Below the pieces are notes generated by a model, which did not search any database, was not told the DNA's origin, and was given only the letters and a program-made list of their open reading frames with translations. Made by a program: the position numbers and the translations under genes. Positions 2,260 through 31,249 of a stretch of DNA of 64,000 bases are shown piece by piece (the stretch's first letter is position 1; every line of letters starts with the position of its first letter). Origin of the DNA: an uncultured Gemmatimonadota bacterium (GTDB taxonomy: Bacteria > Gemmatimonadota > Gemmatimonadetes > Palauibacterales > Palauibacteraceae); assembly GCA_964518305.1 (NCBI GenBank), contig CAZFDK010000002.1:44392-108391 (forward strand), read 5' to 3'.

Positions 2260-2275
2260 GCGGGGGAGGACGACC

Positions 2276-3244: not shown

Positions 3245-3276
3245 GGCGTCGGCGGCGCGCTGCGCCGGGGCTCCGG

Positions 3277-3708: not shown

Positions 3709-3711
3709 TCC

Positions 3712-4605: not shown

Positions 4606-4639
4606 GTCGACAGTCCCGGTGAAGTCGAAGAGGAAACGA

Positions 4640-4948: not shown

Positions 4949-4979
4949 GCTCGTGTCCCCGCTTCGAGTCCAGGGTCCG

Positions 4980-6137
4980 TCACGCCGTGGCCGTCCGCGC
5001 TTCGAACCGCGGCCGCGTGGCGTTGGCGATCCGCACGAGCGTCAGCATCAGCGGCACCTCCACGAGCACGCCCACCACGGTGGCCAGCGCCGCGCCCGAG
5101 GTCACGCCGAACATGGCGATGGCCGCCGCCACGGCGAGCTCGAAGAAGTTGCTGGCCCCGATCATGCCGGCCGGCGCCGCCACGTCGTGCGGCACCCGCC
5201 AGGCGTAGGCCCAGCCGTACGCCAGCCCGAAGATGAAGAAGGTCTGGATCACCAGCGGCACCGCGATGAGCACGATGTGGAACGGGTTGCTCAGGATCAC
5301 CTCGCCCTGAAAGGAGAACAGGAGCACCAGCGTGGCCAGGAGCGCCACGATGGTGACCGGGCCCAGGCGCGGCAGGAACACGTTGTCGAACCACGCCGCC
5401 CCTTTCCTCCGGATGAGGACGGTCCGTGTCAGGTAGCCGGCGACCAGGGGAATGACGATGTAGAGGCCCACCGACAGCAGCAGCGTGTTCCACGGCACGA
5501 CCACGTCGCTGATGCCCAGCAGCAAGGCGACGATGGGCGCGAAGGCCACCAGCAGTACGAGGTCGTTGATCGAGACCTGCACGAGCGTGTAGGCCGGATC
5601 GCCGTCGGTCAGGTAGCTCCACACGAAGACCATCGCCGTGCACGGCGCCGCCCCGAGAAGGATGGCGCCGGCCACGTACTCGCTGGCGAGCCCCGGCTCG
5701 ATGAACGGCGCGAAGATCACCTTCAGGAAGAGCCAAGCGAAGGCGAACATCGTGAACGGCTTGACGAGCCAGTTGGCCACCAGGGTCACCGTGATCCCCT
5801 TCGGGTGACGACGCACGCCCAGCACGCTCTCGAAGTCGACCTGCACCATCATCGGGTAGATCATGGCCCAGATGAGCACGGCGATGGGCAGGTTGACCTG
5901 CGCGATCTCCATCTCGCCCAGCACGTTCGGTACGACCGGGATGATCTGTCCGAGCGCGACGCCGGCAGCGATGCAGAGGGCCACCCACAGGCTCAGGTAC
6001 CGCTCGAAGAAGCCGAGTCCCTCCTGGCTCTTCTCACCGGCCGCCTCGAGGGCGGCGGCGTCCTCCGGGCGAGCCTCGCTGGATCGGGACTCCCCGGCCG
6101 TGGCGGCCTGTTCTCGCTGGGGTGAAGGATCGGACAT
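4980..6137 (-). CDS. acr3: ACR3-family arsenite efflux transporter
   Basis: FFERYLSLWVALCIAAGVALG..VNLPIAVLIWAMIYPMM..AAPCTAMVFVWS are typical ACR3 motifs. About 40 aa of acidic N-terminal extension. Confidence 0.85.
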   Translation of the reverse strand: MSDPSPQREQAATAGESRSSEARPEDAAALEAAGEKSQEGLGFFERYLSLWVALCIAAGVALGQIIPVVPNVLGEMEIAQVNLPIAVLIWAMIYPMMVQVDFESVLGVRRHPKGITVTLVANWLVKPFTMFAFAWLFLKVIFAPFIEPGLASEYVAGAILLGAAPCTAMVFVWSYLTDGDPAYTLVQVSINDLVLLVAFAPIVALLLGISDVVVPWNTLLLSVGLYIVIPLVAGYLTRTVLIRRKGAAWFDNVFLPRLGPVTIVALLATLVLLFSFQGEVILSNPFHIVLIAVPLVIQTFFIFGLAYGWAYAWRVPHDVAAPAGMIGASNFFELAVAAAIAMFGVTSGAALATVVGVLVEVPLMLTLVRIANATRPRFEARTATA

Positions 6138-6221
6138 GGGCTGGGACTCCTGACGTCGCTGTTCGCGGTCGTGAGATTCGTGTTCTGGAGATGTGGGAGC
6201 CGGTCGCGGCCCGACGAGTCC

Positions 6222-7586
6222 TCAGGCGTGGACGGGCCCGGCGCGGCTCCTTCCGGCAGCGAACGCACGGAGACGCTCCGGCCCCACCGGCTCCTTCGGC
6301 ATCCAGGGGGCGAGCGCGACCCGCTCGGCGTGCTCCCCGCGCACGGCCTCGATCTCCGGCACCTCGCGGTGGGCGCGCTCCACCAGCAGCGGATCCGACG
6401 GTCCCGCCGCGGCGAGGCTCTGGTTGACGACCCACGCGTAGGGCGTGATGCCGGCCCGCCCCACGGCGTCCGTGACGTGGGCCGCCGGGTCGGTGGTGCT
6501 GAGCAGCACGTCCTCTCCCCGCGAGGCCAGCTCGACCGCCACGGAGGCGGCCACCGTCGTCTTGCCCACGCCTCCCTTCCCCATCACTGTGATCAGCCCG
6601 CGGCCCTCGTCCGCGAAGCCGTCGACCAGGTCGCGGAGGCTCGGAAGGTCGATCCCGGGCGGCCCCTCCGGGCGCCTCGCCGCGGTGGACTCCGGCTCCC
6701 GCTCCTCCGAGAGCAGGCTCCGGAGCGCGTCGAGTCCCACGAGGTCGTATCCCTTCAGGGGGACCGTCTCGCGTGGAAGGTCGGCCAGGACGTCCGGCAT
6801 CGCGTCAAGGGCCTCCTCCCCCCGCCGATCCATCGCCCGGGCCAGAGGGTCGGCGGGGTCCCGCGACCGGAAGACGCCGTTGACGACGAGCCGCTGATTC
6901 GTAATGTCCAGGTCGCTCAGCGCGCGGCTCGACCGCGCCGCCTCTTCCAGCGCCGCCCCCTCCGGACGACTGACCAGCACGAGGGTCGTCCGCCCCCCGT
7001 CCCGCAGCGCCTCCACGGCGGCCGTGTACCGCTCCCTGTGGGCCTCGAGGCCCGACGCCGGGCCGAGGCAGGACACTCCCTCCGGGTTCTCCTCGATGTA
7101 GTCGCTCCAGGCCGCGGGCAGCTCCAGAAGACGGAGCGTGTGGCCCGTCGGGGCGGTGTCGAACACGACGTGGTCGAACGCCGCGGCGGAGCCCGCGTCG
7201 GCCAGGAACCGGGTGAACTTGTCGAAGGACGCCACCTCGGTCGTGCAGGCCCCGGAGAGCTGCTCCTCCACCTGCTCCACCGCGTCGTCGGGGAGAACAC
7301 CCATCATCGGATCGAGCACGCGCTCGCGGTACTCGTCCGCCGCCTCCTCGGGGTCGATGTTGACGGCCGAGAGGTTCGGCACGCTCTCCACGGGCGCCGC
7401 CTCGCTCCCCACGGGCGCCTCGAGCACCTGCTCGAGGTTGGAGGCCGGATCGGTGCTCACGAGCAGCACCGGGCGGCCCGCGTCGGCCAGGTGCACGGCC
7501 GAGGCGCAGGCCAGCGACGTCTTCCCGACGCCGCCCTTCCCGGTGAAGAAGAGGTACCGTGTCGGCTCGTTCAAAAAGGAGAGCAT
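6222..7586 (-). CDS. arsA: ArsA arsenite-stimulated ATPase with an internally truncated second half
   Basis: MLSFLNEPTRYLFFTGKGGVGKTS..DTAPTGHTLRLLELP (A1 complete). The A2 P-loop VMGKGGVGKTTVAASVA..STTDPAAHV joins directly to RAGITPYAWVVNQSL. The protein is 454 aa, against about 580 expected. ATG at 7586. Confidence 0.8.
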   Translation of the reverse strand: MLSFLNEPTRYLFFTGKGGVGKTSLACASAVHLADAGRPVLLVSTDPASNLEQVLEAPVGSEAAPVESVPNLSAVNIDPEEAADEYRERVLDPMMGVLPDDAVEQVEEQLSGACTTEVASFDKFTRFLADAGSAAAFDHVVFDTAPTGHTLRLLELPAAWSDYIEENPEGVSCLGPASGLEAHRERYTAAVEALRDGGRTTLVLVSRPEGAALEEAARSSRALSDLDITNQRLVVNGVFRSRDPADPLARAMDRRGEEALDAMPDVLADLPRETVPLKGYDLVGLDALRSLLSEEREPESTAARRPEGPPGIDLPSLRDLVDGFADEGRGLITVMGKGGVGKTTVAASVAVELASRGEDVLLSTTDPAAHVTDAVGRAGITPYAWVVNQSLAAAGPSDPLLVERAHREVPEIEAVRGEHAERVALAPWMPKEPVGPERLRAFAAGRSRAGPVHA

Positions 7587-7618
7587 GGGCTCTTCCTCCT
7601 CATCGTCGACGGACACGC

Positions 7619-8428
7619 TCACGCTCCGCCCTTCCTGAGCTGGTCGGCGAAGGCGTCGGGGAGATCGCTCTCCTCGATCCCGCGGGCCGCCCGCTCCACG
7701 TCGTACTCCACGCGGACGTGCTCCACGCCCCAGCCGTTTGCGTTCCCCGCCCCGGTCTCCTTTTGGGTGCCGGGCGCCTCCAGCAGCACGTAGCACGCGC
7801 GGGGATCCCCGTCCTTCGGGCGCCCCACGGACCCGGCGTTCACGAAGCGCATACCGTCGACCACCCGCGACCACGGAACGTGGGTGTGCCCGAAGAGGAT
7901 CGCGTCCCCCTCGGTCAGGCCCGCCCGCTCCGCCATATCGCGACAGAAGTCGTCCGACCGGTCCTCCGTCCAGTACAGCGTGTTGCGGGTGGGAGCCCCG
8001 TGCACCAGCGCCAGCCGGGGACCGGCGGTGTGTCCGCCGAAGGGCTTCAGATCGATCCGGAACGGGAGCCCCGCCAGCCGGCGGCGCGTCTCCGCGGAGA
8101 CGTGTTCCCGGGTCCAACCGTAGCTCTCACCCGAGAGGGCCTGCTGCTCGGGGTCGTCGTAGCGGCAGCCGCAGTGGTCGTGGCCCGTGGCCACCGTGGA
8201 GTCGTAGTTTCCGGCGATGCCGGGGACGCCCCGCTCCTCCAGCAGCGCCACGACCCGGTCCGGCCACGGCGCGTAGCCCACCAGGTCGCCCAGGTGGTAG
8301 GCGGCCGTCACCCCGCGCTCCTCCACATCGGCCAGCACCGCCTCCAGCGCCGGCAGGTTCGCGTGGACGTCCGAGATCAGCGCGTAGCGGACGGGCCCTC
8401 CCCCGTCGCGATCGTGGGAAGCCGCCAT
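7619..8428 (-). CDS. Metallophosphoesterase (YfcE/MJ0936-like)
   Basis: ALISDVHANL..HLGDLVGY..GNYD..LFGHTHVP motifs. The ATG at 8428 overlaps the arsM stop (ATGA). Confidence 0.7.
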   Translation of the reverse strand: MAASHDRDGGGPVRYALISDVHANLPALEAVLADVEERGVTAAYHLGDLVGYAPWPDRVVALLEERGVPGIAGNYDSTVATGHDHCGCRYDDPEQQALSGESYGWTREHVSAETRRRLAGLPFRIDLKPFGGHTAGPRLALVHGAPTRNTLYWTEDRSDDFCRDMAERAGLTEGDAILFGHTHVPWSRVVDGMRFVNAGSVGRPKDGDPRACYVLLEAPGTQKETGAGNANGWGVEHVRVEYDVERAARGIEESDLPDAFADQLRKGGA

Positions 8429-9315
8429 CACGCCCCCGGCTTGCGGGCCCGGACGAAGGCGGCCATCAGCCGCCCGTCGATCTCCTCCGCCACCTCGTCC
8501 GGATCGAGCCCGGCGTCCTCGATGAAGGACGCGGCGTCCCCGGCGGAGTAGACGCGGGTCGGCTCCACCTCGATCTCGCCGAAGCCCGCCTCCGCCAGCA
8601 GGCGGCGGTACTCGTCCTCCTCCAGGGCCCCCGCGACGCAGCCGGCCCACAGCTCCATGTTCCGGCGGATGGCCTCCGGGACCGGGCCGCGGACCACCAC
8701 GTCGGACACCGCGAATCGGCCGCCGGGCCGCAGGACGCGGAAGGCCTCGGAGAGGACCTGCTCCTTGTCGGCCGAGAGGTTGATGACGCAGTTGGAGATG
8801 ATCACGTCGACGGAGGCGTCCGGGAGCGGGAGGTCCTCGATCTCCCCCTTGCGGAACTCCACGTTCCCGGCCCCCGCCTCCCGGGCGTTCTGCCGCGCCT
8901 CCTCCAGCATCTCGTCGGTCATGTCGACGCCGTAGACCCGGCCCTCGGGCCCCACCCGGCGGGCCGAGAGCAGGACGTCGACGCCGGCCCCGGAGCCCAG
9001 GTCCAGCACCGTCTCGCCCTCCCGCAGCTTCGCCAGCGCCGTCGGATTGCCGCACCCGAGGGAGGCCTCCAGCGCAGCCGTCGGAAGGTCCTCGCGGTCG
9101 TCGTCGCCGTAGAGGCCCGAGGTGATTGGATCCCCGTCCTCCCCGGCACAGGAGCTTCCGGCATCGCAGCAGCCGCCTTCCGCCACCTGCCGCGCCGCAT
9201 CGCCGTACTTCTCCCGGAGCTGCTCCCGGAGCTGCTCGGACGTCTCGATCGCCTCGTCGCTCGACCTCCGCGGGGAGGAGGCGGCTCCGTCGTCGTCCGT
9301 CATATCAATCACCAT
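8428..9315 (-). CDS. arsM: Arsenite S-adenosylmethionine methyltransferase
   Basis: The SAM motif [12 protein letters not shown] plus conserved Cys residues ([24 protein letters not shown]) match ArsM. An alternative start lies at 9303. Confidence 0.8.
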
Positions 9316-9319
9316 TGAT
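9304..9319. promoter_or_regulatory. Perfect palindrome ATCAAT-CACC-ATTGAT (candidate ArsR operator) overlapping the arsM start
   Basis: Read directly from the sequence. It has the same 6-4-6 architecture as the site at 9714-9729. Confidence 0.5.
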
Positions 9320-9372
9320 GGGTTCGTCCAAAAAAAGGGAGAAGGAGCCCCGGCTCGTCCCGGCCGGGCGTG

Positions 9373-9699
9373 TCAGCAGCAGCGCCCGGCCGATTCCCCG
9401 GACGACGCGGCGCGGGCGAGCGCGTCCAGCTCGTCGCGGAGCGCCTCCAGGCCCTCCCGGTCCAGCGAGTAGTAGACCCAGCGGCCGTCACGCCGGTCGT
9501 TCACCAGCCCCGCCTCCTTCAGCGACTTCAGGTGGAAGGAGAGAAGGGACTGCCCCACGTCCAGAGCGTCCGTCAGGTCGCACACACATTGCTCGCCGTC
9601 GCACAGCATCTCGAGGATCCGGAGACGCTTGTCGTCCGACAGCGCCTGGAAGCGCGCGGACACGTCTCGGTCGGGGGCCGTAGGCGTCTTCGTGGTCAT
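9373..9699 (-). CDS. arsR: ArsR/SmtB-family metalloregulator
   Basis: LRILEMLCDGEQCVCDLTDALDVGQSLLSFHLKSLKEAGLV, with a C-terminal GRCC. Confidence 0.85.
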   Translation of the reverse strand: MTTKTPTAPDRDVSARFQALSDDKRLRILEMLCDGEQCVCDLTDALDVGQSLLSFHLKSLKEAGLVNDRRDGRWVYYSLDREGLEALRDELDALARAASSGESAGRCC

Positions 9700-9713
9700 G
9701 ACCCCCTCAATAT

Positions 9714-9729
9714 ATCAATCATAATTGAT
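9714..9729. promoter_or_regulatory. Perfect palindrome ATCAAT-CATA-ATTGAT (candidate ArsR operator) just upstream of arsR
   Basis: Read directly. It sits in an AT-rich patch 15 nt upstream of the arsR ATG (9699, minus strand). Confidence 0.55.
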
Positions 9730-9861
9730 CAGTCAACCCGACGGGCGCCCGGGCCCGGAGAGGTCCGCGCGAGGAGAGTTTCCCTGGCGGCAGTCGCCCC
9801 CCAGGTTTCGAAGACGTGGAGCCGCCCTTCCCTCACCCCGTACGCCGGATGGTCATCGCCC

Positions 9862-10203
9862 GTGGCTGACGTCCGCGTGGTCTACGACGGCGACTGCCCC
9901 TTCTGCTCGGCCTATGCCCGCCTGACCCGCCTGCGCCAGCGACACGACATGGAGCTGGTGAACGCCCGGGAGGCACCGGAGCTCGTGCGGCGCCTGCGGG
10001 ACCGGGGGTACGACGTGGACGAGGGGATGGTCGTCCTGGCGGACGGCGACATCCATCACGGCGAGGACGCCGCGGCGTTCCTGGAGGTGGCGAGCCGGCT
10101 CCCCCTGCTCCCCTCCGCCGGGTGGATCCGGCGCCTCTATCCCTGGGTGTACCGACTCAGGAGCCTCGCCCTCCGGCTGCTGGGGCGTGACCCCCACATC
10201 TGA
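9862..10203 (+). CDS. DCC-family thiol-disulfide oxidoreductase (DUF393)
   Basis: VVYDGDCPFCSAYARL motif. The GTG start at 9862 is a guess within ORF 9370..10203. Confidence 0.6.
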   Translation: MADVRVVYDGDCPFCSAYARLTRLRQRHDMELVNAREAPELVRRLRDRGYDVDEGMVVLADGDIHHGEDAAAFLEVASRLPLLPSAGWIRRLYPWVYRLRSLALRLLGRDPHI

Positions 10204-12844: not shown

Positions 12845-13591
12845 TCACCGATGCTCAGGGTTCGGGTGATCGAAGCGGCAGCCCGCGTCCCACTCCGAGC
12901 GCTGATTCCCGTGGGCGGGAATCCCGCCCCGGTCCTTCAGCGTCCGGGCCAGGTGCATCAGGTTCCAGGTCATGAACGTGGTGTTGCGCTGCGTGAACTC
13001 GTTCTGCGGCCCGCCCGACCCCTCGTCGAGGTACGACGGACCGGGTCCGGCCTCCCCGATCCATCCGGCATCGGCCTGCGGCGGCACCGTGTAGCCGATG
13101 TGCTGGAGGGCGTATAGGGTGTTCATCGCGCAGTGCTTGATGCCGTCCTCGTTGCCGGTGAGGATGCACCCGGCGACCCGGTCGTAGTAGGCGTACTGGC
13201 CGCGGTCGTTGAGCTCGCCGGAGTATCCGTACAGCCGCTCGATCACCTTGCTGCACTCCGACGAGCGCTCGCCGAGCCAGATGGGCGAGCCCAGGATCAG
13301 GATCTCGGCGGCCATCACCTTCTCCTGGATCGCGGGCCAGTCGTCGCTCTCCCACCCGTGTTCGGTCATGTCCTTGTAGACGCCCGGGGCGATATCGTGG
13401 TCCACCGGGCGCAGCACCTCGACGTCCACGTCGTTCTCCTCCATGATGGCAGCGGAGACGTCGATCAGCCCCCGGGTGTGGGACTGCTCCGGCGACGGCT
13501 TCAGTGTACAGTTGAAAAAAAGAGCGCTCAGGTCCGAGTAGTCCTCGTCGCTCTCCTCGCACATCTGCTTCTGTCGTTCGCTGAGCGTCAT
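12845..13591 (-). CDS. Flavodoxin-like NAD(P)H-dependent FMN reductase family protein
   Basis: ALFFNCTLKPSP..AEILILGSPIWLGERSS..ILTGNEDG pattern. ATG at 13591. Confidence 0.55.
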   Translation of the reverse strand: MTLSERQKQMCEESDEDYSDLSALFFNCTLKPSPEQSHTRGLIDVSAAIMEENDVDVEVLRPVDHDIAPGVYKDMTEHGWESDDWPAIQEKVMAAEILILGSPIWLGERSSECSKVIERLYGYSGELNDRGQYAYYDRVAGCILTGNEDGIKHCAMNTLYALQHIGYTVPPQADAGWIGEAGPGPSYLDEGSGGPQNEFTQRNTTFMTWNLMHLARTLKDRGGIPAHGNQRSEWDAGCRFDHPNPEHR

Positions 13592-13873
13592 TCGTGGTTT
13601 CCCCCTGTCGTGGGATCGTGAATCCAGTCTGCTCGCGGGTGCGGATCGCGCCCCGCCAACTGCGCTCGCCCCGTCGGTGTTCCCGGCGGCGGGCCGGAAG
13701 CCCCGCGGCGCGGGGCGGCCCGGAACAACGGTGGGGAGAGCACGGTTGACGCCTCCCGCGGGGACAGGGGGCCGAGCCCGGGGCGATGCGCCCTTCTCCG
13801 CGACCGCCGACGAGCGAGCGCGCCAGAGTCTGAATCGGAAGACGGTCTGAATCTGGAGAAGGAGGACTGGGTC

Positions 13874-14533
13874 GTGACTCGACTGGAGGAGAAGCTCCGA
13901 CGGACACGGGAGAAGGCCGCCGAGCGGATGCCCGAATCCGCCCTCGAGGTGCTGGGCGCGCACAGCCGACACCTGGAGGAAGCGGACCGCGCCGCCGAGG
14001 CCGTGGGCGTCGGAGAGGCCGCGCCCGACTTCCGGCTCGCCTCTGCCGGCGGAGGCGAGGTACAGCTCTCCGAGCTCCTCGCACGGGGGCCGGTGATCCT
14101 GAACTTCTACCGCGGACGCTGGTGACCGTACTGCAACCTGGAGCTGGCAGCTCTGGAAAGCCGACGGCACGACTTCGAGGAGAGAGACGCCTCCCTCGTG
14201 GCGATCTCCCCGCAGACGCCGGACGAGAGCCGGCGGGCGGCCGACGACTTCGGTGTCCACTTCCCGCTCCTGGCCGACCGGGCGAACGAGACGGCGCGGG
14301 ACTACGGCCTCGTGTATCGCTGTCCCGACCGCATGAAGGAGATCTTCCTGGAGGTGCTGGAGACGGACCTCGCGGAGTACAACGGCGACGACTCGTGGAC
14401 GCTCCCCATGCCCGCCCGGTACGTGGTGGACGGCGACGGCATCGTCCGGTGGGCCAGCGTGAGCCCCGACTACACCCGGCGCCCGGACCCGGAGGAGACG
14501 CTGCAGGCGCTGGAGGAGCCGGGGGAAAGCTGA
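13874..14533 (+). CDS. Peroxiredoxin-like (AhpC/TSA, PRX_like2-type) protein with in-frame UGA; predicted selenoprotein
   Basis: ORFs 13874..14125 and 14198..14533 are in the same frame. Read-through of the TGA at 14123-14125 gives VILNFYRGRW-U-PYCNLELAAL..SLVAISPQTPDES, the family redox motif WCPYC with Sec in place of Cys. GTG start preceded by GAAGGAGGA. Confidence 0.7.
14138..14156 (+). promoter_or_regulatory. Candidate bacterial SECIS hairpin
   Basis: CTGGAGCT-GGC-AGCTCTGG forms 8 bp (including 2 G-U pairs) with an apical loop that starts with G. It begins 12 nt after the UGA. Confidence 0.45.
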
Positions 14534-14541: not shown

Positions 14542-15840
14542 ATGCGCTGCGCCGGAAGGGCCGGGATCGGACGCCCGCTCCGGCTGGCGCTGGCCTCGCT
14601 GCTCCTCGTCGCGTGGGGGTGCGGGGGATCGCCGCAGATTCCCGAGATCCCCTGGACTCCGCCGGCCGACGTCGAGCGGGGGCCCTACCTGCAGGCCGTG
14701 ACCGACAGCTCCGCCGTCGTCCGGTGGCGGGGCACGGAGCCGCCCCCCCGGCCGTCCTTCCGGTATCGGATCGTCCGGGACCGGGCGGGCGAGGCGGACA
14801 CGAGCTGGACCGCGGCCCGGGTGGAGATGCGCCGGGACGCGGGCCGGGAGGCGCGGCTGAAGGGGCTCCCGGCCGGTACGTCCGTCGTCTACGAGGTCGT
14901 GGAGAACGGCCGGGTCCTCGGCCCGTACCGCTTCCGGACCGCGCCGCCGCCGGAGCGACCCGACAGCGTCGTCCGGGTCCTGGCCTTCGGCGACTCCGGA
15001 TGGGGGTCCCGGGAGCAGGTCACCCTGGCGCGGCGCATGACCGGGCGCGACCGGGACCTGGCGCTGCACGTCGGCGACCTGGCCTACCCGTCGGGCTCCG
15101 CGCGGTCCCTCACGCTGCGACACTTCGACGTCTACCGGAAACTGCTCGCGGAAGTCCCCCTCTTCCCGGTGCCGGGCAACCACGACCTGCGCACCGACGG
15201 AGGCCGGCCCTACGACGTCGCCTTCACCTGGCCCCGGGACGGTGACGGGAGCCGGAAACGCCGCTACTACCGGTTTCGCTGGGGACACGCCCTCTTCGTG
15301 GCCCTGGACACAAGCACGCCGGCCCAGCTGGATTCGCTGCAGCGCGGGGAGGGCGCCCAGTACCGCTGGCTGCGGACGCATCTCCGGCGGGCCGGGAGCG
15401 ACTCCTCGGTGCGCTGGACCGTGGTCTACATGCACCACCCCCTGTACAGCAGCGCAGGAGGACTGTCGGGCCACGGGTCGAACCGGGCGCTGCGCGACGC
15501 CCTGCGTCCCCTGTTCGAGCGGGAAGGGGTCGACCTCGTGCTGGCGGGCCACGACCACCACTACGAGCGCACCCGCCCGCTTCTGAACGGTGAGCCGGTG
15601 CCCCCGGGCTGCGGCCCGGTCTACGTCGTGACCGGCGGCGGGGGAGCCAGCCGGCACGCGCGCACCGTGCGGGAGAGCGGACGGACGGCCGCCTCCTCGC
15701 GCCGCTACCACTTTCTCGAGCTGAGTCTGCGGCGGAACGGGGCCCAGGGGCGGGCAGTGGGCCTCGACGGTCGCCCCCTGGACCGCTTCCGGCTGCGGAC
15801 GCACGAGTCCGCGGCCCGGCCGGGCAGCTGCGCGGGATGA
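14542..15840 (+). CDS. Purple-acid-phosphatase-like metallophosphoesterase lipoprotein
   Basis: Lipobox LLLVAWGCGG, plus GDSG, HVGDLAY, GNHD, MHHPLYSS and GHDHHYER motifs. ATG at 14542. Confidence 0.75.
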   Translation: MRCAGRAGIGRPLRLALASLLLVAWGCGGSPQIPEIPWTPPADVERGPYLQAVTDSSAVVRWRGTEPPPRPSFRYRIVRDRAGEADTSWTAARVEMRRDAGREARLKGLPAGTSVVYEVVENGRVLGPYRFRTAPPPERPDSVVRVLAFGDSGWGSREQVTLARRMTGRDRDLALHVGDLAYPSGSARSLTLRHFDVYRKLLAEVPLFPVPGNHDLRTDGGRPYDVAFTWPRDGDGSRKRRYYRFRWGHALFVALDTSTPAQLDSLQRGEGAQYRWLRTHLRRAGSDSSVRWTVVYMHHPLYSSAGGLSGHGSNRALRDALRPLFEREGVDLVLAGHDHHYERTRPLLNGEPVPPGCGPVYVVTGGGGASRHARTVRESGRTAASSRRYHFLELSLRRNGAQGRAVGLDGRPLDRFRLRTHESAARPGSCAG

Positions 15841-15882: not shown

Positions 15883-18800
15883 TCAGGACGTGTCCGCCCG
15901 GCGCACTTCCCCCGCCAGGTGGTCGAGGACCGCCTCCACCACGCCGAACTCCTCCTCCAGGAGCCGAAAGAAGTCCTGCTGGCCGAGCACCAGGAGACGG
16001 GACGGCTCGACGCACACGGCGGTGTAGTGACGGGGCTTTTTGTCCAGGAGGCTGAGGCTCCCGATTGATTCACCCTCCTCGGCCACGAAGGCGAGGCGGT
16101 CCTCCTGGCGCGCCTCCACCGCTCCCGACGCCACCACGTACAGCTCGGCCGAGAGCTCGCCGGCCGCGAACACCTCCTGCCCCTCGGCGAAGCTTCGCTC
16201 CTCCATCAGGGCGGCCAGGCCCGCCAGGACCTCCGTCCGGAGGTCGGCGAAGAGCTCGGTCTGCCGCAGGATCTCGGCCCGCTCGGTGATCTCCACGAAC
16301 GTCTCCTCGTCAAGGTCAGCCAGGAATTCGGCGCGTCGGCCGCCGCCCGGGCCCAGCAGGGTGTCGCCGACGGCGGTGATCGCGCCCTCGCAGGCGCGCG
16401 CCGCGCTCGCCATCTCCCCGCGCCGCAGTCGGGCGAGCCCCCTCACCCAGGAATCCGTCGGGTGGGAGGCGAGCTCCTCCAGGGCCCCGTGGGCGGAGGG
16501 GCGCTCGATGCCGTACCGCTCGAGGGCGGCCCGCTCCCGGTCCGCCGGTCCCCTGTCCGGATCCACCAGGGGCGCCAGCCTCCGGCGCTGCTCGATCGGC
16601 AGCGCGTTCTCGAGCAGCTCCATGCCCCGCTGGCGGTCCAGCGCGTCGTCGGAGGTCAGCGCCGTGTACGCGACGTACAGGTCCTCCAGCGAGTGCCGCA
16701 GCCCCAGCACCCGCAGGGCCCGCTCCACGGCTTCCCGCTCCCGCTGGCGCAGCGTGCGATCCAGCAGGTCCTCGCCGTCCCCCGCCGATTCGGGCCCCGC
16801 CCCCGTGGAGACGTCCCGGAGCAGGGCCCACCGGAAACCGGAGCGGAGCTCGCGCCGGAGCTGGGGCGCGAGGTCGAGGTGCTCGAACTCCAGCTCCCCG
16901 CGGTCCCGGCGAATCTTGTCCAGGGTCCGCAGGATCTGGTACCGAACGCCGTGCGAGTCGACCGCGTCCAGGGCGTCCCACAGGCTCTCCACCGTGGACT
17001 GTTCGGCCTGCTCGTAGAGGACGCGGGCCAGCCTCTCCCTGGCCGCGGCGGACAGGTCCCCGTCGCCCAGGCGGGACGCCAGCTCGGAGTGGATCGCCGG
17101 ACAGAGGCTCCTCAGCCCTGTCCGGGCGGCGTCCCGCGTCTCGGGGTCCTCCAGCCCCCGGACCAGATCGGGCGCCAGCCCGCGGGCGTCCAGCGTTCCC
17201 GCCGCCCGCACGGACCGGCGGCGCACTCGGGCGTCCGGGTCCCGCACCAGGCTCTCCAGGACCTCCTCGCCGCCCGGCGGCAGGCGGCGCGCCTCCGACA
17301 GCAGCTCGGCCGCTTCCTCCCGGTCTGCCGGCCGCTCGGAACGGGCGAGACGCCGCACCCGGGCCATGCCCTCTTCCCGCTGCTCCTCGCGCCCGTACCG
17401 GAGGAGACAGCCCACCGCCGCCGTCCGCACCTCCCGGCGGTCGTCCTCCAGCAGGGCCTCCATTTCCCGGGCCGGGCCCCGCGGGCCGTGGTCGCATACG
17501 AAGTGGACGGCCTCCGTCCGGACTTCGTGGGAGGAGTCCCGGAGCAGGCGCCGGGCTTCCGGCAGGGCCTCCTCGGAGCCGATCTCGTAGAGCAGGGAGA
17601 GGGCTCGGGCGCGAACGCGTCCGGACGAGTGCCCCAGCAGGTCCCGGAGCTCCCCCTCCAGCTCCGCCGTGGGCGACTGCTCCAGCAGCGACAGCGCGTA
17701 CAGGACCTCGCGCTCGTCATCGCTCGCCAGCGCACCGCGCAGCTGCTCAAGCGTCGTCGCGTCGAGCTGCTCCACGATCAGCTCGTCCAGGTCCACGTCC
17801 CGGACCCCGATCAGCCGCTTCACCGAGTCCCGGAATTCGTCCCGCATCCGTACCGTGGCCGCGATCCACGCGACGAGCAGCAGGATCGAGAGCACCGCCA
17901 CCCCCCGGATCCCGAATCCGAGCCAGTTCGTGACGCCGAGCAGCAGGATCCCGGCCACCCCCGTTCCCCCGCGGTAGATCCCGAGATCGATGAGAGGCTT
18001 CGCCCGATACTTCACCTCCGACGGGACGGGCAGGAAGAGCAGCTCGCGCGTGGACTGGTCCAGCGAGTAGCGGAGCGCTCCGTCGGATCCCTTGGCCAGG
18101 GCGGCAGCCAGGAGTCCCGGTACCGCCAGCACTCCGCCGGTGGCGGCGAGCAGGGTCACCGGGAGAACGAGGAGCGCCACGCCGATCCCGAAGCTCCTGA
18201 GCACGAACGAGGTGAGGAACACCTGGATGGCAACGGACGCGACGTTCTGCACCGCGAAGAATCGTCCGAAGAACGCCGTCTTCGCGTCCTCGCCGGCCAC
18301 GTACATCTCCACGGCCCGGTTGAACTGCCAGTCGACGAGCGTGCTCACGACGATGGTCAGCCCGAGGATCAGGGCGACCGTCCTCAGGTGGGACGACTCC
18401 CGAACCAGGGTCAGTGCGTCGGCGGAGACGTCGTCCACGAGGCGAGCGTCCCCGCCCCCCCGGAGGCGGGGAAGAAGGAGGCTCACGATGAGCGCACAGG
18501 CCGAGAGGATCGCCGCAGCGACGAGGAGGAGAGCCTCGCTCCCCACCAGATCCGCCGCCAGGCCCGAGACGGCGCTCCCGGCCACGCCGCCGACCACGAG
18601 CCCGACGCCGATGGGTCCGAAGAGCCGCTTCGCCTGGCGGGTGGAGAAGAGCCTGTTGGCCACCAGCCAGAACTGGCTCATCAGGAAGAGCGGGTAGACC
18701 TTGCCGAACACGTAGAAGGCACCGGACGCCACGGTCCCCCCCACCCGGAGCCAGGCCCAGAACCCCACCAGCGACGCCCCCATGAGCCCGAAGGTGGTCA

Positions 18801-19071
18801 TCAGGAGCCGACCGGGCGCCGTGTCCTCCACGCGGCGCGAGTAGAGCATCACCGCGACGCTGACCACCACGGCCGTGAGGACGTAGACCCAGGGGAGATT
18901 CTCCGCGCCGACCCGGTCGATGAACACCGAGTTCCGGACCGGCTTGATGACGTAGTGGGAGCTGAGGGCCAGAAGGCCGTAGAGGAACATCAGCCCCGCC
19001 GGGACCAGCTCCTCCCGGCGCACGTCGGTGACGCTCCGCCACCACTCGGCCAGCGTGCCCCGAACGCTCAC
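15883..19071 (-). CDS. Fusion protein: Npt1/Npt2 (TLC ATP/ADP-translocase-like) MFS domain, HEAT repeats and a C-terminal cyclic-nucleotide-binding domain
   Basis: The N-terminal ~430 aa are polytopic (REELVPAGLMFLYGLLALSSHYVIKPVRNSVF). The middle has repeated ..D.VR..A...L.. HEAT units. The C-terminus is FAEGQEVFAAGELSAELYVVASGAVEA..GESIGSLSLLD (CAP-type cNMP fold). Confidence 0.65.
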   Translation of the reverse strand: MSVRGTLAEWWRSVTDVRREELVPAGLMFLYGLLALSSHYVIKPVRNSVFIDRVGAENLPWVYVLTAVVVSVAVMLYSRRVEDTAPGRLLMTTFGLMGASLVGFWAWLRVGGTVASGAFYVFGKVYPLFLMSQFWLVANRLFSTRQAKRLFGPIGVGLVVGGVAGSAVSGLAADLVGSEALLLVAAAILSACALIVSLLLPRLRGGGDARLVDDVSADALTLVRESSHLRTVALILGLTIVVSTLVDWQFNRAVEMYVAGEDAKTAFFGRFFAVQNVASVAIQVFLTSFVLRSFGIGVALLVLPVTLLAATGGVLAVPGLLAAALAKGSDGALRYSLDQSTRELLFLPVPSEVKYRAKPLIDLGIYRGGTGVAGILLLGVTNWLGFGIRGVAVLSILLLVAWIAATVRMRDEFRDSVKRLIGVRDVDLDELIVEQLDATTLEQLRGALASDDEREVLYALSLLEQSPTAELEGELRDLLGHSSGRVRARALSLLYEIGSEEALPEARRLLRDSSHEVRTEAVHFVCDHGPRGPAREMEALLEDDRREVRTAAVGCLLRYGREEQREEGMARVRRLARSERPADREEAAELLSEARRLPPGGEEVLESLVRDPDARVRRRSVRAAGTLDARGLAPDLVRGLEDPETRDAARTGLRSLCPAIHSELASRLGDGDLSAAARERLARVLYEQAEQSTVESLWDALDAVDSHGVRYQILRTLDKIRRDRGELEFEHLDLAPQLRRELRSGFRWALLRDVSTGAGPESAGDGEDLLDRTLRQREREAVERALRVLGLRHSLEDLYVAYTALTSDDALDRQRGMELLENALPIEQRRRLAPLVDPDRGPADRERAALERYGIERPSAHGALEELASHPTDSWVRGLARLRRGEMASAARACEGAITAVGDTLLGPGGGRRAEFLADLDEETFVEITERAEILRQTELFADLRTEVLAGLAALMEERSFAEGQEVFAAGELSAELYVVASGAVEARQEDRLAFVAEEGESIGSLSLLDKKPRHYTAVCVEPSRLLVLGQQDFFRLLEEEFGVVEAVLDHLAGEVRRADTS

Positions 19072-19131: not shown

Positions 19132-19980
19132 TCATCCGGACAGGCTGAGCGCCAGGACCAGAGCGCCCACAGCGGCGAACACTCCTCCGAGCACCTTCTC
19201 CATGAGATCCGCCGGAAGCCACTTGCCCACGCGGCTTCCGAGGGTGCTCCCGACGAGGACCCCGGGCACGCTCCATCCGACGACCCTCCAGGCGGGAGAG
19301 GCCGCCGTCGCGTGGATGCCGGCCGCTGCGACGGCGGTGATGGCCAGGACGAACACGCTCGTGGCCACGGCCACACGGGGCGGAACGCGACAGCGCACCA
19401 CCAGCTGGGTGGTCGAGATCTCCGGGAGCCCGGCGCTCACGAGACCCGTGAACGCTCCTCCGATCGCCGCCAGCAGGACCCCCGGGGGACGCCAGCACGT
19501 CGGGTACTCGAAGTGCTCGCCGTCCGCCGACTCGATCACCGTGGTCCCCTTGCCCCGCGACCTCTCGTCGATCACCTCACTGGCCTCCTCGCCGGGCTCG
19601 CACGCCTCCGGATTCTTCACGAAGAGCAGGAACCCCGCCAGCACCACGAGCGCGCCCCCGAAGACGCGCTTCATCACCACGTCCGGCACCTGGTGCGCCA
19701 CCAGGGCCCCCGCGACCGCGAACGGAACCGCGCCCAGCAGCAGCCACCGGGCCGTCGCGTAGTCCACCAGGTTCTGGGCCACGTAGGATCGGAGCCCGTT
19801 CCCCATCCCGAAGGCCTCCGTCAGGAGGCCCGCGCCCACGGCCTGCGCCGGGGTCAGGCCCAGCGCCAGCATGAAGAAGGGGCTGAAGAAGAGGGCCCCG
19901 GACACGCCGGAGCCCACCGCCACGGTGGCGAACGCGATCGAGGTGGGGAAGACCCACCAGAGGCTCAGGAGCTCCGACAT
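19132..19980 (-). CDS. TauE/SafE-family anion exporter
   Basis: Polytopic protein with GSGVSGALFFSPFFMLALGL..GGAFTGLVSAGLPEISTTQL. The ATG at 19980 overlaps the pgl stop. Confidence 0.65.
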   Translation of the reverse strand: MSELLSLWWVFPTSIAFATVAVGSGVSGALFFSPFFMLALGLTPAQAVGAGLLTEAFGMGNGLRSYVAQNLVDYATARWLLLGAVPFAVAGALVAHQVPDVVMKRVFGGALVVLAGFLLFVKNPEACEPGEEASEVIDERSRGKGTTVIESADGEHFEYPTCWRPPGVLLAAIGGAFTGLVSAGLPEISTTQLVVRCRVPPRVAVATSVFVLAITAVAAAGIHATAASPAWRVVGWSVPGVLVGSTLGSRVGKWLPADLMEKVLGGVFAAVGALVLALSLSG

Positions 19981-20738
19981 CACCCGCTCCCGTCCTCCCG
20001 GACCTCGCGGGCCCGGTCGGCCGCAGGCCCGTCCAGCATCCACGTGCCGCCGCGCGCCAGGCGCGACGGGCAGTCCCGAACCGGGTCCGGCTCGGCGAGC
20101 GCCCGTGCCACCGGCTCCGCCTTCTCGCGCCCGGTGGCCAGCACCACGATCCTGCGGGCGGCCCCGACCACGGGGGGCGTCACGGTGAGCCGCTGCACGG
20201 GCGGCTCGGGCGCCTCCACGGGGACCACCCGCCGGTCGCGCTCGGCCAGGGCCGGCGACCCGGGGAACAGGGAGGCGGTGTGGCCGTCCTCGCCGATCCC
20301 CAGGAGGAGGAGATCGAGCTCTCCGGGCAGCACGCCGGCGTACTCCTCGGCGGCCCTCCACCGGTCGGGCCGCTCGGCCTCCATGCGGTGCACCCGCGCC
20401 GCCGGGACGTCGACATGCTCCAGGAGCGTCTTCCGCGCCATCCGGTAGTTGCTCTCCGGGTGATCGGGAGGCACGCCGCGCTCGTCACCGAAGTAGACGT
20501 GCACCGACGACCAGTCGAGCGAGCCCCTCGCGCGAAGCTCACGGTAGGCGGGCCCGGGCGTGGAGCCGCCGGCCAGGGCCAGGGCGCACCTCCCCGCGCG
20601 ATCGACGGCCCGTCGCATCTCGCCGGCGATCAGGCTCGCCGCCGTCTCGGCCCACCTTTCCGGGGACCCGACCAGCACCTCGCCTCGCTCCCGGAGCGTG
20701 CCCCCGTCGCCGGCCGCCGCCATCAGATCGCCTTCCAC
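19980..20738 (-). CDS. pgl: 6-phosphogluconolactonase
   Basis: LALAGGSTPGPAYREL..VYFGDERGVPPDHPESNY..LLLGIGEDGHTASLFPG. An alternative ATG at 20723 abuts the zwf stop. Confidence 0.85.
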   Translation of the reverse strand: MEGDLMAAAGDGGTLRERGEVLVGSPERWAETAASLIAGEMRRAVDRAGRCALALAGGSTPGPAYRELRARGSLDWSSVHVYFGDERGVPPDHPESNYRMARKTLLEHVDVPAARVHRMEAERPDRWRAAEEYAGVLPGELDLLLLGIGEDGHTASLFPGSPALAERDRRVVPVEAPEPPVQRLTVTPPVVGAARRIVVLATGREKAEPVARALAEPDPVRDCPSRLARGGTWMLDGPAADRAREVREDGSG

Positions 20739-22315
20739 GACCGCCCGTCCCGCTCCAGCAGGGCCTCCGCTCCGTCCGGTCCCCAGCTGCCGGCGCGATA
20801 GTTCGGAAGATCAGCGTGAGGGGACGACTCCCAGCTGTCCACCAGCGGATCCACGATGGACCACGCGTGCTCCACCCAGTCCCTGCGGGCGAAGAGCGTC
20901 TGGTCGCCCTGCATGGCGTCCATGAGCAGCCAGGCGTAGGCGGACGGAGGCTCCTCGATGCCGAAGGCCCGGGCGTACTCGAACTCCATCCGCACGGGCT
21001 CCAGGGCCACCCTGGGGCCGGGGCGCTTGGCGGCGAACCGCTGGACGATGCCCTCCTCCGGCTGCAGCCGGAAGGCGAGCACGTTCCGCTCGACGTCGTC
21101 CTGTCCCGGAAACATGCTGTGGGGGGTGGGCCGGAAGTGGACCGCGACCTCGGTGAGCTTCCGAGGGAGTCGCTTCCCGGTGCGCAGGTAGAAGGGCACG
21201 CCGGACCACCGCCAGTTGTCCACGCGCAGCTCCAGGGCGGCGAAGGTCGGCGTCGTGGACTCCGGCTCCACGCCCTCCTCGCCCCGGTACCCCGGCACCT
21301 CCGTCCCGTCGATCCGGCCGGGGCCGTACTGACCCGCCACGAAGTCCCGCTCGGGTTCGACCGGCTCGACGGCCTGCAGCACCTTCGCCGTCTCGTCCCG
21401 GAGCGAGCTGCCGAGGCAGCGCACAGGGGGCTCGATGGCCGTGATGCAGAGCAGCTGCAGGAGATGGTTCTGGACCATGTCCCGGACCACGCCCGTCTCC
21501 TCGTAGAAGCCCGCGCGGTCCCCGATCCCGACGTCCTCGGCCGCCGTGATCTGGACGTGGTCGATGTAGTTCCGGTTCCAGATCGGCTCGTACCCGGGGT
21601 TGGCGAACCGGAAGACGAGCATGTTCTGGACGGTCTCCTTGCCGAGATAGTGGTCGATCCGGTAGATCTCGTCCTCCGCGAAGACGTCCTGCAGCTCCCG
21701 GTTCAGCCGGACGGCGGACGCCCGGTCCCGCCCGAAGGGCTTCTCGATCACCAGCCGGCGCCAGCCCTCCTCGCTCTGTGTCAGGCCCGCCCGCTCCAGC
21801 CGACCGGGAATCTCCGTGAAGAAGCTCGGAGGGACGGCCAGGTGGAAGAGGACGTTGTCCGGGATCCCGTGTCTCTCCCGGAGCCGCTCCACCTCCCGCG
21901 CCAGGTCCGCGTAGTCGCCCCCCGGCGGAGAGCGGACGTCGGCCGGGCAGTAATGGAGCCGCCGGGCGAACGACTCCCACCGGGAGCCGTCGACCTCGGA
22001 GCGGCCGAGCACGGCCTCGCGCATCCGGTCGCGAAACGTCGCGTCGTCCCACTCCGTCCGCGCCGTCCCCAGCACCGCGAACCGCCCGGGCAGGAGCTCC
22101 TGGCAGTGCAGCTCGTACAGGGAGGGGACGAGGTCCTTCGCGGTCAGGTCGCCGGAGGCGCCGAAGATCACCATCACGCAGGGGTCGGCCGCCTCCCCGG
22201 GCTCGAGGCCCGCCTCCCGGCAGCGGACTCCCACCCGCACGGCTTCCTCCCCGGTCCCGTCACGCGCATCCTCCGGGGACCGCCTGTCCTCGTCCAAATC
22301 GCCCGCCCCGCTCAC
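20723..22315 (-). CDS. zwf: Glucose-6-phosphate dehydrogenase
   Basis: VIFGASGDLTAKDL, EKPFGRD, RIDHYLGKE and NHLLQLL motifs. The GTG at 22315 overlaps the gnd stop (GTGA). Confidence 0.85.
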   Translation of the reverse strand: MSGAGDLDEDRRSPEDARDGTGEEAVRVGVRCREAGLEPGEAADPCVMVIFGASGDLTAKDLVPSLYELHCQELLPGRFAVLGTARTEWDDATFRDRMREAVLGRSEVDGSRWESFARRLHYCPADVRSPPGGDYADLAREVERLRERHGIPDNVLFHLAVPPSFFTEIPGRLERAGLTQSEEGWRRLVIEKPFGRDRASAVRLNRELQDVFAEDEIYRIDHYLGKETVQNMLVFRFANPGYEPIWNRNYIDHVQITAAEDVGIGDRAGFYEETGVVRDMVQNHLLQLLCITAIEPPVRCLGSSLRDETAKVLQAVEPVEPERDFVAGQYGPGRIDGTEVPGYRGEEGVEPESTTPTFAALELRVDNWRWSGVPFYLRTGKRLPRKLTEVAVHFRPTPHSMFPGQDDVERNVLAFRLQPEEGIVQRFAAKRPGPRVALEPVRMEFEYARAFGIEEPPSAYAWLLMDAMQGDQTLFARRDWVEHAWSIVDPLVDSWESSPHADLPNYRAGSWGPDGAEALLERDGRSWKAI

Positions 22316-23226
22316 GACCCGTCCTCCTCCTCTTCTCTGACCCCGTGGCCCCCGAACTGGTCGCGGAGGGCCGCGATCACCTTGGCCGAGAAGCGCTCCT
22401 CCATCCGGGAGTCGAAGCGCTCGTAGAGCGAGTTCGTCAGGCTGCCCACCGGGATGGCGTTCTCCACGGCGTACTGGACCGTCCAGCGGCCCATGCCGGA
22501 GTCGTCCACGTAGCCCGCGATGCGCTCGAGCTCGTTGCCCTCTTCGTCGAAGGCGTCGGACAGGAGCTCCAGGAGCCACGACCGGACCACGGCCCCGTGC
22601 TGCCACAGCTCAGCCACCTGCTGCAGGTCGACGTCGAACTCGGAGCGCTCCAGGCACTCGAAGCCCTCCCCCAGGGCCTGCAGCATGCCGTACTCGATGC
22701 CGTTGTGGATCATCTTCACGAAGTGGCCCGCGCCGTTCTCCCCCACATGCGCGTACCCGCCCTCGGGCGCCAGACTGCGGAACGCCGGCTCGAGGTCGCG
22801 AAACGCCTCCTCCGGGCCGCCGATCATCATGCAGTAGCCCTCCTCCAGCCCCCATACCCCGCCGCTCACCCCGGCGTCCAGGAACCGTATGTCCTCCTGC
22901 TCGCAGCGACCCGCCGCGGCCATCGAGTCGGTGAACCGGGAGTTGCCGCCGTCGACGATAGTGTCGCCGGGATCCATGAGCCCGATGAGCTCGTCGATGG
23001 TCTCGTCGGTGGGCTCCCCGTGGGGCACCATCACCCACACGGACCGCGGGGGCTCCAGCCGGCCGATCAGGTCGGGGACCGAATCGGCGGCGGCGCCCCC
23101 CGCCTCCTCCGCGTCGCGTCGCCGGTCCGCGTCCAGGTCGAATCCGACGACCTGGTGGCCGTCGCGCACGAGCCGCCGGAGCATGTTGCCGCCCATCTTC
23201 CCCAGGCCGACGATTCCGATCTCCAT
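22312..23226 (-). CDS. gnd: 6-phosphogluconate dehydrogenase, decarboxylating (short form)
   Basis: MEIGIVGLGKMGGNM..DGGNS..GAGHFVKMIHNGIEYG. ATG at 23226 preceded by AAAGGGAGGAT. Confidence 0.85.
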   Translation of the reverse strand: MEIGIVGLGKMGGNMLRRLVRDGHQVVGFDLDADRRRDAEEAGGAAADSVPDLIGRLEPPRSVWVMVPHGEPTDETIDELIGLMDPGDTIVDGGNSRFTDSMAAAGRCEQEDIRFLDAGVSGGVWGLEEGYCMMIGGPEEAFRDLEPAFRSLAPEGGYAHVGENGAGHFVKMIHNGIEYGMLQALGEGFECLERSEFDVDLQQVAELWQHGAVVRSWLLELLSDAFDEEGNELERIAGYVDDSGMGRWTVQYAVENAIPVGSLTNSLYERFDSRMEERFSAKVIAALRDQFGGHGVREEEEDGS

Positions 23227-31217: not shown

Positions 31218-31249
31218 CCACGCGCTGATCTCGGGACGGAATCGCCCGT

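Follow-up and report, generated by a model that had tools for sequence, protein, structure and literature searches.

Are two short open reading frames (ORFs) that share a frame and are parted by a single TGA two proteins, the remains of one, or a gene for a selenoprotein? This question is raised by positions 13874-14533 of a stretch of 64,000 nucleotides from an uncultured Gemmatimonadota bacterium (contig CAZFDK010000002.1), which is called the window in the following. A first-pass annotation of the window proposed that the TGA at 14123-14125 encodes selenocysteine (Sec) at the redox cysteine (Cys) of a peroxiredoxin-like (Prx-like) protein and that a hairpin behind it serves as selenocysteine insertion sequence (SECIS). 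Based on the comparisons described below, it is almost certain that UGA encodes selenocysteine as the active-site residue and that a conserved RNA hairpin directs its insertion, and we estimate the probability of Sec decoding of UGA 14123-14125 at about 0.9. The outcome is a correction of the annotation, which adds a further member to a known type of selenoprotein, and no discovery.

One gene with an in-frame UGA codon

The plus strand of the window comprises a single frame of 220 codons between 13874 and 14533, in which the TGA at 14123-14125 is the one internal stop and the TGA at 14531-14533 the terminal one. In the ORF listing this frame is broken into 13874..14125 (83 aa) and 14198..14533 (111 aa), both with a GTG start, and no stop other than the TGA at 14123-14125 separates the two. 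Reading of the frame confirmed the product of 219 aa that the first-pass annotation had derived by read-through, ...GPVILNFYRGRW-U-PYCNLELAALESRRHDFEERDASLVAISPQTPDES..., with GRW-U-PYCNLELAALESR as the peptide spanning the recoded codon. The GTG at the beginning of the frame was also picked as start by the gene callers in three public assemblies. The GC content at third codon positions (GC3) amounts to 0.84 before the TGA and to 0.93 overall after it. The segment 14126-14197, which precedes any possible restart codon, showed a GC3 of 0.79, and the coding signature continues after the TGA without a pause. The region 13874-14533 is one gene, which is read as two fragments by ORF callers.

With Cys substituted for the stop, the read-through product matched PF00578 (AhpC-TSA) over residues 46-193 with an E of 1.9e-30 (105.8 bits compared to a cutoff of 26), and the Redoxin match from Pfam also spans the TGA. 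Since both matches cross this codon, one domain spans the stop. A search of 5.8 billion proteins resulted in 6148 homologues, the best of which are single chains of 215-227 aa with a query coverage of 80-99% and are called, where named, "peroxiredoxin-like family protein" or "AhpC/TSA family protein". The possibility that the N- and C-terminal halves are normally separate proteins is refuted by these single chains of ~220 aa. No full-length entry for the window gene or for the corresponding gene of Desulfoluna spongiiphila was found in this collection, which may exclude Sec-containing sequences.

An alignment of 24 full-length homologues showed the motif F-Y-R-G-x-W-C-P-Y-C-N to be invariant except for x, and the TGA falls on its first Cys, just where the first-pass annotation had placed it in the WCPYC motif. 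At column 84 all 24 homologues have Cys, and W83, P85, Y86, C87 and N88 are invariant. Downstream of the TGA the family motifs SWTLPMPARY and PDYTRRPDP are intact in the window gene, and with the closest named homologues the protein shares its length and the motifs WCPYCN, SWxLPMP and PDYTxRP. The assignment to PRX_like2 (cd02970) is based on the names, length and motifs of the homologues.

The scores against the NCBIfam models lie below the respective cutoffs, with 28.3 versus 270 for PrxU (NF040737), 34.2 versus 140 for Bcp, 18.3 versus 260 for PrxQ and 52 versus 170 for ResA. An identity as SelL-related redox protein (NF040769) was rejected at 41.9 bits compared to a cutoff of 120. The classification as canonical peroxiredoxin or PrxU was rejected as well, since the Thr/Ser position of the PxxxT/SxxC(U) motif would be occupied by Sec and since the NCBIfam scores are far below cutoff.

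The 83-aa ORF with the same TGA is present on contigs from three separately assembled runs (SRR14300219, SRR14300223, SRR14300214), which differ from the window by 0-6 mismatches over 1.1-10.7 kb. The TGA is also kept in the diverged lineage variants L124/L213, L212, L214 and L215, which come from other studies (ERZ27241916, ERZ10759785, SRR34348086, SRR6201607, Ga0207797) and show a protein identity of 88-97% as well as the metallophosphoesterase gene behind the selenoprotein gene; eight other assemblies of this lineage preserve it. Downstream of the TGA, the differences between the window and variants are distributed over the codon positions 1/2/3 as 12/7/30 and 12/5/27. This third-position bias is the pattern of a half that is translated and under purifying selection. 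Among four lineage variants, 1 variable site was counted in the 54 nt after the TGA versus 120 in the whole 660 nt, a low variation that is consistent with a SECIS but no proof of one.

The recurrence of the TGA was determined by a scan of one genome per species (GTDB representatives) with a degenerate DNA pattern for F-Y-R-G-x-W-TGA-P-Y-C-N, which was found in at least 120 species-representative genomes. Among the matches listed, the carriers comprise Desulfobacterota, Acidobacteriota, Methylomirabilota/Rokubacteria, Chloroflexota, Dormibacterota, Actinomycetota (Rubrobacter, Gaiellaceae, Euzebyales), Planctomycetota, Verrucomicrobiota, Armatimonadota, Eremiobacterota, Ignavibacteria, Nitrospirota, Myxococcota, Binatia and one Gemmatimonadota metagenome-assembled genome (MAG; L108). 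The same list includes MAGs of Desulfuromonadales and Desulfocapsaceae and three cultured isolates, namely D. spongiiphila, D. limicola and Desulfosediminicola flagellatus. In most listed genomes the frame remains open for ~131-137 codons past the TGA, and in the window for 135. Since the pattern scan itself required a TGA, a second, codon-blind search was made, in which the 111-aa C-terminal half served as query against metagenome contigs and the codon before it was inspected only thereafter. The 28 closest metagenomic relatives in which the motif could be read carry TGA in 24 cases and TGC/TGT in the other 4, so that the window gene sits among mostly TGA-carrying relatives. The more distant matches were ordinary FYPADW-S-PVC peroxiredoxins. 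A pattern scan of viral contigs for the Cys-form gave 0 matches and hence no controls.

The downstream hairpin and the proposed mechanism

The hairpin at 14138-14156, which the first-pass annotation had described with 8 bp and a GGC loop at a distance typical of SECIS elements, begins 12 nt after the UGA, and the spacing from UGA to loop is 20 nt (23 counted from the U). The bSECIS model (PMC13188914, Fig. 2 legend) comprises an apical loop of 3-9 nt that has G in its first two positions, an upper stem of 4-16 bp, a spacing of 16-37 nt from UGA to loop and a minimum free energy (MFE) of <= -7.5 kcal/mol. The window hairpin agrees with all five constraints (GGC loop, 8 bp, 20 nt, -8.0 kcal/mol), and the described distance holds true for the published range. 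For the core hairpin a z of -1.6 was calculated, and 11 of 200 shuffles fold equally well; the extended structure 14123-14169 showed -16.6 kcal/mol with a z of -1.3. The hairpin alone is therefore unremarkable in DNA of 70% GC, and its significance comes only from the comparison with other sequences. When the MFE of the whole segment was compared to synonymous recodings, the mean z was -1.55 for Sec-forms and -0.44 for Cys-forms, with p = 0.14 for the window, which is a moderate signal. Tests at the level of codons and of the pairing register are much sharper.

Folding of 120 TGA-forms revealed a hairpin 12-13 nt after the UGA in every subfamily, with sequences differing between the subfamilies. 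The subfamily of the window, defined by the peptide U-P-Y-C-N-x-E-L-x-A-L, comprises 79 distinct TGA-forms. Among these Sec-forms the Ala codon of the stem is GCU in 74 of 79 cases, compared to an expectation of 10.2 calculated from the 11.7% GCU among the other Ala codons of the same genes. The Glu codon is GAG in all 79, the first Leu codon CUG in 78 and the loop GGN in 72. In contrast, GCU was observed once in eight Cys-forms of the same xEL.A peptide class, which pair over at most 3 bp in this register. Free variation was observed at other synonymous positions of the 45-nt alignment, where, for instance, the third position of Pro has no majority base. In the window, the stem is completed at third codon positions by an A (GCA) and a U (GCU), and the gene around them has a GC3 of ~0.89-0.93. 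The SECIS core GAGCUGGNAGCUC is nearly invariant within the clade of the window, and since it is interleaved with the E-L-x-A-L codons, it is specific to this gene family.

The pairing itself leads to the same picture. In the proposed register 83% of the cells are paired, compared to 35-48% after a shift of the 3' partners by 1-3 columns, and the two outer pairs showed compensatory changes, with GC 25 and CG 13 for 16-34 and CG 26, UG 25 and UA 10 for 17-33. When perfect hairpins were enumerated, the best energy averaged -7.4 kcal/mol in 146 TGA-forms versus -3.4 kcal/mol in 11 Cys-forms, and only in the TGA-forms do the loop positions cluster 16-24 nt from the UGA. Covariance scoring around 14123-14170, which the first-pass annotation had suggested as a check, was carried out with a covariance model (CM) built from 74 TGA-form elements, excluding the window and its lineage. 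In a search of both strands (128 kb) the segment 14123-14165 scored 52.4 bits (E = 5.6e-21), while the runner-up reached 11.3 bits. According to these sequence comparisons, the structure is held by selection on synonymous sites and not by coding alone, and by comparative criteria the action of the hairpin 14138-14156 as bacterial SECIS is well-supported.

The runner-up match lies at 8611-8661 on the minus strand (rough E = 0.005) inside an ArsM-type methyltransferase gene and covers only the hairpin part without a UGA; it is probably a chance match in GC-rich coding sequence. Besides the subfamily of the window, two other TGA-form subfamilies were observed. One of them carries FYRGDW-U-PYCNGQL in Rubrobacter, Dormibacterota, Thermomicrobiales and related groups, with a frame of ~110 or ~200 codons behind the TGA and a hairpin of its own (GGGCAGCUGGUCAGCUUUGCC type). 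The other carries FYRGYW-U-PYCNS/LEL in Acidobacteriota, with CUCGAGUUGCGAGG-type hairpins. Loci of these two subfamilies include L001, L003, L018, L025, L033, L034, L060, L067, L081, L092 and L105. Across the TGA-form subfamilies the position of the hairpin is conserved and its sequence is not. Distant relatives from soil metagenomes (L156, L157, L161, L162) carry FYRGHW-TGA-PFCVSEL, with another residue after the second Cys.

With respect to structure, the Sec aligns with the first Cys of W-C-P-H-C in ResA, which is the Thr/Ser position of "S/T-P-V-C" in Bcp/PrxQ, and Cys87 aligns with the peroxidatic Cys. The AlphaFold model of the Cys homologue P0001 (52% identity; AF2) has a mean predicted local distance difference test (pLDDT) of 94.4 and comprises an N-terminal helix pair (5-19, 22-38) followed by a thioredoxin-type core, in which C-P-Y-C opens the helix 86-97. 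Its best structural matches are peroxiredoxins of the Bcp/PrxQ/AhpE type with a target template modelling (TM) score of 0.86-0.90, followed by ResA. As judged from this model, the enzyme would combine a Prx scaffold with a thioredoxin-like U-x-x-C centre.

By analogy to known Sec insertion, UGA 14123-14125 would be recoded locally, with the downstream hairpin as bacterial SECIS that recruits SelB.GTP.Sec-tRNA(Sec) to the ribosome, and Sec would be inserted in place of termination. Located at the N-terminus of the active-site helix, Sec84 could act as an exposed attacking nucleophile. An attack on a disulfide or peroxide as the possible substrate would lead to a selenenylsulfide between Sec84 and Cys87 as the oxidised state, which may be recycled by an external thiol reductant.

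Local recoding and alternative explanations

The TGA terminates 34 of the 42 ORFs in the window, including this gene. A genome-wide reassignment of UGA was therefore rejected, and since TGA is the main stop codon in the window, the recoding is local to UGA 14123-14125. When the window was screened for further in-frame TGAs with coding signal on either side, three sites emerged, 40751-40753 (+), 19132-19134 (-) and 3712-3714 (-). All of them were rejected as additional selenoprotein candidates, as they are same-frame junctions of unrelated adjacent genes, namely of an unannotated ORF and a HEAT-repeat protein (40751), of TauE and a TLC-HEAT protein (19132) and of Usp and OsmC (3712). Same-frame gene junctions that are split by a TGA alone thus mimic the signature of a selenoprotein in the ORF track.

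Several observations weigh against the decoding as Sec. Neither a SelA, SelB or SelD domain nor SelU was found by Pfam in the 64-kb window (~50 ORFs, nearly the whole window), and ARAGORN detected no tRNA of any kind there, including tRNA-Sec. As a single sequence, the hairpin does not fold with a significant energy (z = -1.3 to -2.1). The third-position conservation after the UGA in the close lineage is not significant either when taken alone (3/20 versus 65/200, Fisher p = 0.13). The compared sequences are related, so that their counts do not represent independent events. Finally, Cys-forms still score 9-41 bits with the CM, whose score thus partly reflects shared coding sequence; the CM is accordingly a detector and not an independent proof. 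A search of the window with Rfam at gathering thresholds resulted in no catalogued RNA family.

The question of how the gene could carry this TGA without being a selenoprotein gene has several possible answers. The UGA might be passed by readthrough or be decoded as Cys, Trp or a different standard residue, in each case without selenium, either by near-cognate suppression in a leaky UGA-C context or by Cys loaded on tRNA-Sec, resulting in a full-length protein that is no selenoprotein. UGA-C is a weak termination context, and a C follows the UGA in all 75 aligned sequences; in addition, no Sec machinery was found within the window. Nonetheless, a hairpin of SECIS type with synonymous constraint, canonical distance and GG loop is needed by SelB and not by simple readthrough, UGA is the main stop codon in the window, and many of the carriers are Desulfobacterota, a group with reported selenoprotein-rich organisms (PMC1794560). 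This explanation is considered improbable. Even less probable is a pseudogene, in which a Cys codon TGC/TGT mutated to TGA, leaving a dead gene that yields an 83-aa fragment or nothing useful. For the step from TGY to TGA one base change is enough, the gene is split by gene callers in every public assembly of the lineage examined, and the window showed no Sec machinery. A decayed gene is, however, difficult to reconcile with a TGA that has been retained, with a long open frame behind it, by at least 120 species and by 24 of the 28 nearest relatives. Furthermore, the downstream divergence is biased to third positions with SWTLPMPARY and PDYTRRPDP left intact, and the hairpin behind this codon, which is maintained by rare synonymous codons, is confined to TGA-forms.

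For a sequencing or assembly error in place of TGC/TGT nothing specific can be brought forward apart from the generic possibility that applies to any single metagenomic contig, and the identical base in three independent run assemblies and in the diverged variants effectively refutes this concern of the first-pass annotation. The intention of two separate small proteins, an N-terminal one of 83 aa and one of 111 aa starting from the GTG at 14198, has a next to negligible probability as well. Although both ORFs are called in public assemblies, the break would lie inside the active-site motif of one thioredoxin-fold domain, whose homologues are all single chains, and the GC3 of 14126-14197 is at coding level upstream of the supposed second start, where the conserved PYCN...AISPQT is encoded. 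Altogether, the decoding of the UGA as Sec is the explanation that we prefer.

Genomic surroundings, significance and known systems

The coordinates of the gene, its elements and its neighbours are summarized in Table 1.

Table 1. Elements of the putative selenoprotein gene and other annotated genes in the window (positions refer to the window)
Feature	Position	Strand	Basis or remark
Complete coding sequence, 219-aa Prx-like (AhpC/TSA-fold) thiol:disulfide oxidoreductase with probable Sec at residue 84	13874..14533	+	one frame; PF00578 across TGA; full-length Cys homologues
Shine-Dalgarno-like AGGAGG	13860..13865	+	sequence itself; 8 nt upstream of GTG start
Probable Sec codon UGA, first position of U-P-Y-C redox motif	14123..14125	+	on >=90% conserved Cys84 column; recurrent TGA in relatives
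Cys87 codon TGC, probable resolving partner in UxxC, equivalent to Bcp/PrxQ peroxidatic Cys	14132..14134	+	invariant C87 column; alignment to Bcp 'SPVC', ResA 'WCPHC'
Putative SECIS core hairpin CUGGAGCU-GGC-AGCUCUGG, 8 bp (two G-U), apical loop GGC 14146-14148	14138..14156	+	folding, synonymous-codon constraint, pair counts, CM score; invariant in four lineage variants
Extended SECIS (predicted): lower stem, UGA + CCGU paired with ACGG + CA around core, -16.6 kcal/mol	14123..14169	+	folding; 1 variable site in nt +1..+54 of lineage variants
True stop codon (TGA) of the gene	14531..14533	+	reading frame
Metallophosphoesterase gene, 8 nt downstream	14542..15840	+	Pfam; synteny kept in L121, L212, L214, L215
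NADPH-dependent flavin mononucleotide (FMN) reductase-like gene, divergent	12845..13591	-	Pfam PF03358
ArsP-like permease	2201-3244	+	arsenic cluster
OsmC-like protein	3277-3711	-	arsenic cluster
Tandem universal stress protein (Usp)	3712-4683	-	arsenic cluster
ACR3/SBF-type transporter	4980-6221	-	arsenic cluster
ArsA ATPase	6222-8126	-	arsenic cluster
S-adenosylmethionine (SAM) methyltransferase, ArsM type	8428-9372	-	arsenic cluster
ArsR regulator	9373-9714	-	arsenic cluster
DCC1-like thiol-disulfide oxidoreductase	~9715-10203	+	after arsenic cluster genes
TauE-family exporter	19132-19980	-	pentose-phosphate operon
6-Phosphogluconolactonase	19980-20723	-	pentose-phosphate operon
Glucose-6-phosphate dehydrogenase	20723-22315	-	pentose-phosphate operon
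6-Phosphogluconate dehydrogenase-like	22312-23226	-	pentose-phosphate operon

The selenoprotein gene and the metallophosphoesterase gene behind it are probably co-transcribed, and no terminator-like site was found between them. Scans for promoters and terminators around the gene found nothing. The window further contains a cluster of the arsenic-resistance type (2201-10203). Its ArsM and OsmC genes are without an in-frame TGA, although Sec-containing relatives of both are described in the literature. An oxidative pentose-phosphate operon with overlapping stop and start codons (19132-23226, -) brings a supply of NADPH next to the redox genes. Its glucose-6-phosphate dehydrogenase has an identity of 61-65% to proteins named from Gemmatimonadota/Gemmatimonadales and to a few of other phyla, a weak hint at a divergent Gemmatimonadota-like organism. 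Membrane proteins of a TLC (ATP/ADP transporter)-like type are encoded twice, at 15883-19071 (-) and 32583-34085 (-). The first of them (1062 aa) also carries HEAT repeats and, at its C-terminus, a cyclic-nucleotide-binding domain, which is an unusual architecture in a free-living bacterium of high GC content. For five sizeable ORFs with a good coding signature (GC3 0.78-0.90) no Pfam match was obtained, at 1e-5 for 36407-38353 (-), 39794-40753 (+), 48370-49887 (-) and 61319-62185 (+) and at 1e-4 for 29508-31247 (-).

The value of the finding lies in the repair of the annotation, in a very clean SECIS signature at synonymous codons and in the breadth of unannotated TGA-forms in public genomes, while the knowledge of the mechanism of Sec decoding remains unchanged. 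Two ORFs that would be taken as "hypothetical/AhpC-TSA fragment" become one selenoenzyme, and the same split was observed in every public assembly of the lineage examined. The presence of the gene predicts a full Sec-insertion system and a need for selenium in an organism with 70.7% GC. Since the TGA-form is present in at least 120 species genomes and full-length entries for the window gene and that of D. spongiiphila are missing, the Prx-like selenoprotein family may be undercounted when redox enzymes or the use of selenium are surveyed in soil and sediment bacteria. The conserved hairpin after W-UGA-P-Y-C-N together with the CM offers a simple route to find and repair such genes.

A more far-reaching interpretation can be put forward only tentatively and is rather doubtful. 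In that case, the W-U-P-Y-C-N clade of PRX_like2-type proteins would be a selenoprotein group that is far larger and taxonomically broader than catalogued, and Sec decoding in a Gemmatimonadota-like lineage would be indicated for the first time by the window copy. The basis for this are the at least 120 species from ~15 phylum-level groups and the majority of the TGA-form among the nearest relatives. Since gene callers split the gene, the clade would be largely invisible in protein databases. A literature search found no report of selenoproteins in Gemmatimonadota.

Compared to known systems, the hairpin resembles the bSECISearch model and the SECIS of E. coli fdhF in being a stem-loop in the coding region directly 3' of the UGA with a small loop that starts with GG. 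In the minimal element of fdhF, a short upper stem-loop with GGUC in the loop lies ~11 nt downstream of the UGA. In contrast to fdhF, the window hairpin has no bulged U and a loop of only 3 nt.

On the protein level, the ResA/TlpA/CcmG type (W-C-x-x-C) agrees residue for residue in W-C-P-x-C (WCPHC in the ResA variant 3c71, WCPYC in 3hdc) and forms the second group of structural matches. However, these proteins are extracytoplasmic, membrane-anchored and without the N-terminal helical extension, and the fold of the window protein is nearer to Bcp/PrxQ/AhpE. With PrxU of Eubacterium acidaminophilum (NF040737, TxxU) it shares the fold superfamily and a Sec at the redox centre. While in PrxU the peroxidatic Cys of TxxC is replaced by Sec, the window protein would carry Sec at the Thr/Ser position and keeps the Cys equivalent to the peroxidatic one. 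The best Cys homologues bear exactly the NCBI name of cd02970/PRX_like2 and share the length of ~220 aa and the N-terminal two-helix extension. In the 2026 review, the cd02970 "peroxiredoxin-like family protein" is listed separately as a selenoprotein with UxxS (PMC13188914), whereas the window gene and more than 140 relatives have UxxC (U-P-Y/F-C). Due to this separate listing, the catalogue slot of the W-U-P-Y-C-N clade is unsettled.

The closest correspondence is given by the Prx-like thiol:disulfide oxidoreductases. A "Prx-like protein" with a thioredoxin-like UxxC instead of TxxU was already a known family in the Sargasso Sea study, with 22 sequences (PMC1088965), and "Prx-like 1" (pfam00578, UxxC) comprised 225 selenoproteins and 2,740 Cys homologues in the Global Ocean Sampling (GOS) data (PMC2398784). 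A "Prx-like thiol:disulfide oxidoreductase" was also reported in Geobacter, Desulfotalea and Syntrophus (PMC1794560), and the catalogues of 2022 and 2026 define it by PF00578 and UxxC/UxxU (PMC9312934; PMC13188914). Both defining features are found in the window protein, which has the PF00578 domain and W-U-P-Y-C, that is UxxC and not TxxU. It has in common with the family the Sec in first position of UxxC, the abundant Cys homologues and the SECIS directly after the UGA; it differs in originating from a probably Gemmatimonadota-like genome of 70.7% GC. Domain and motif also point to homology with the reference protein of the family, WP_010940744.1. The Prx-like UxxC selenoprotein family has been catalogued since 2004-2005, and the window gene is a further, mis-split member of it.

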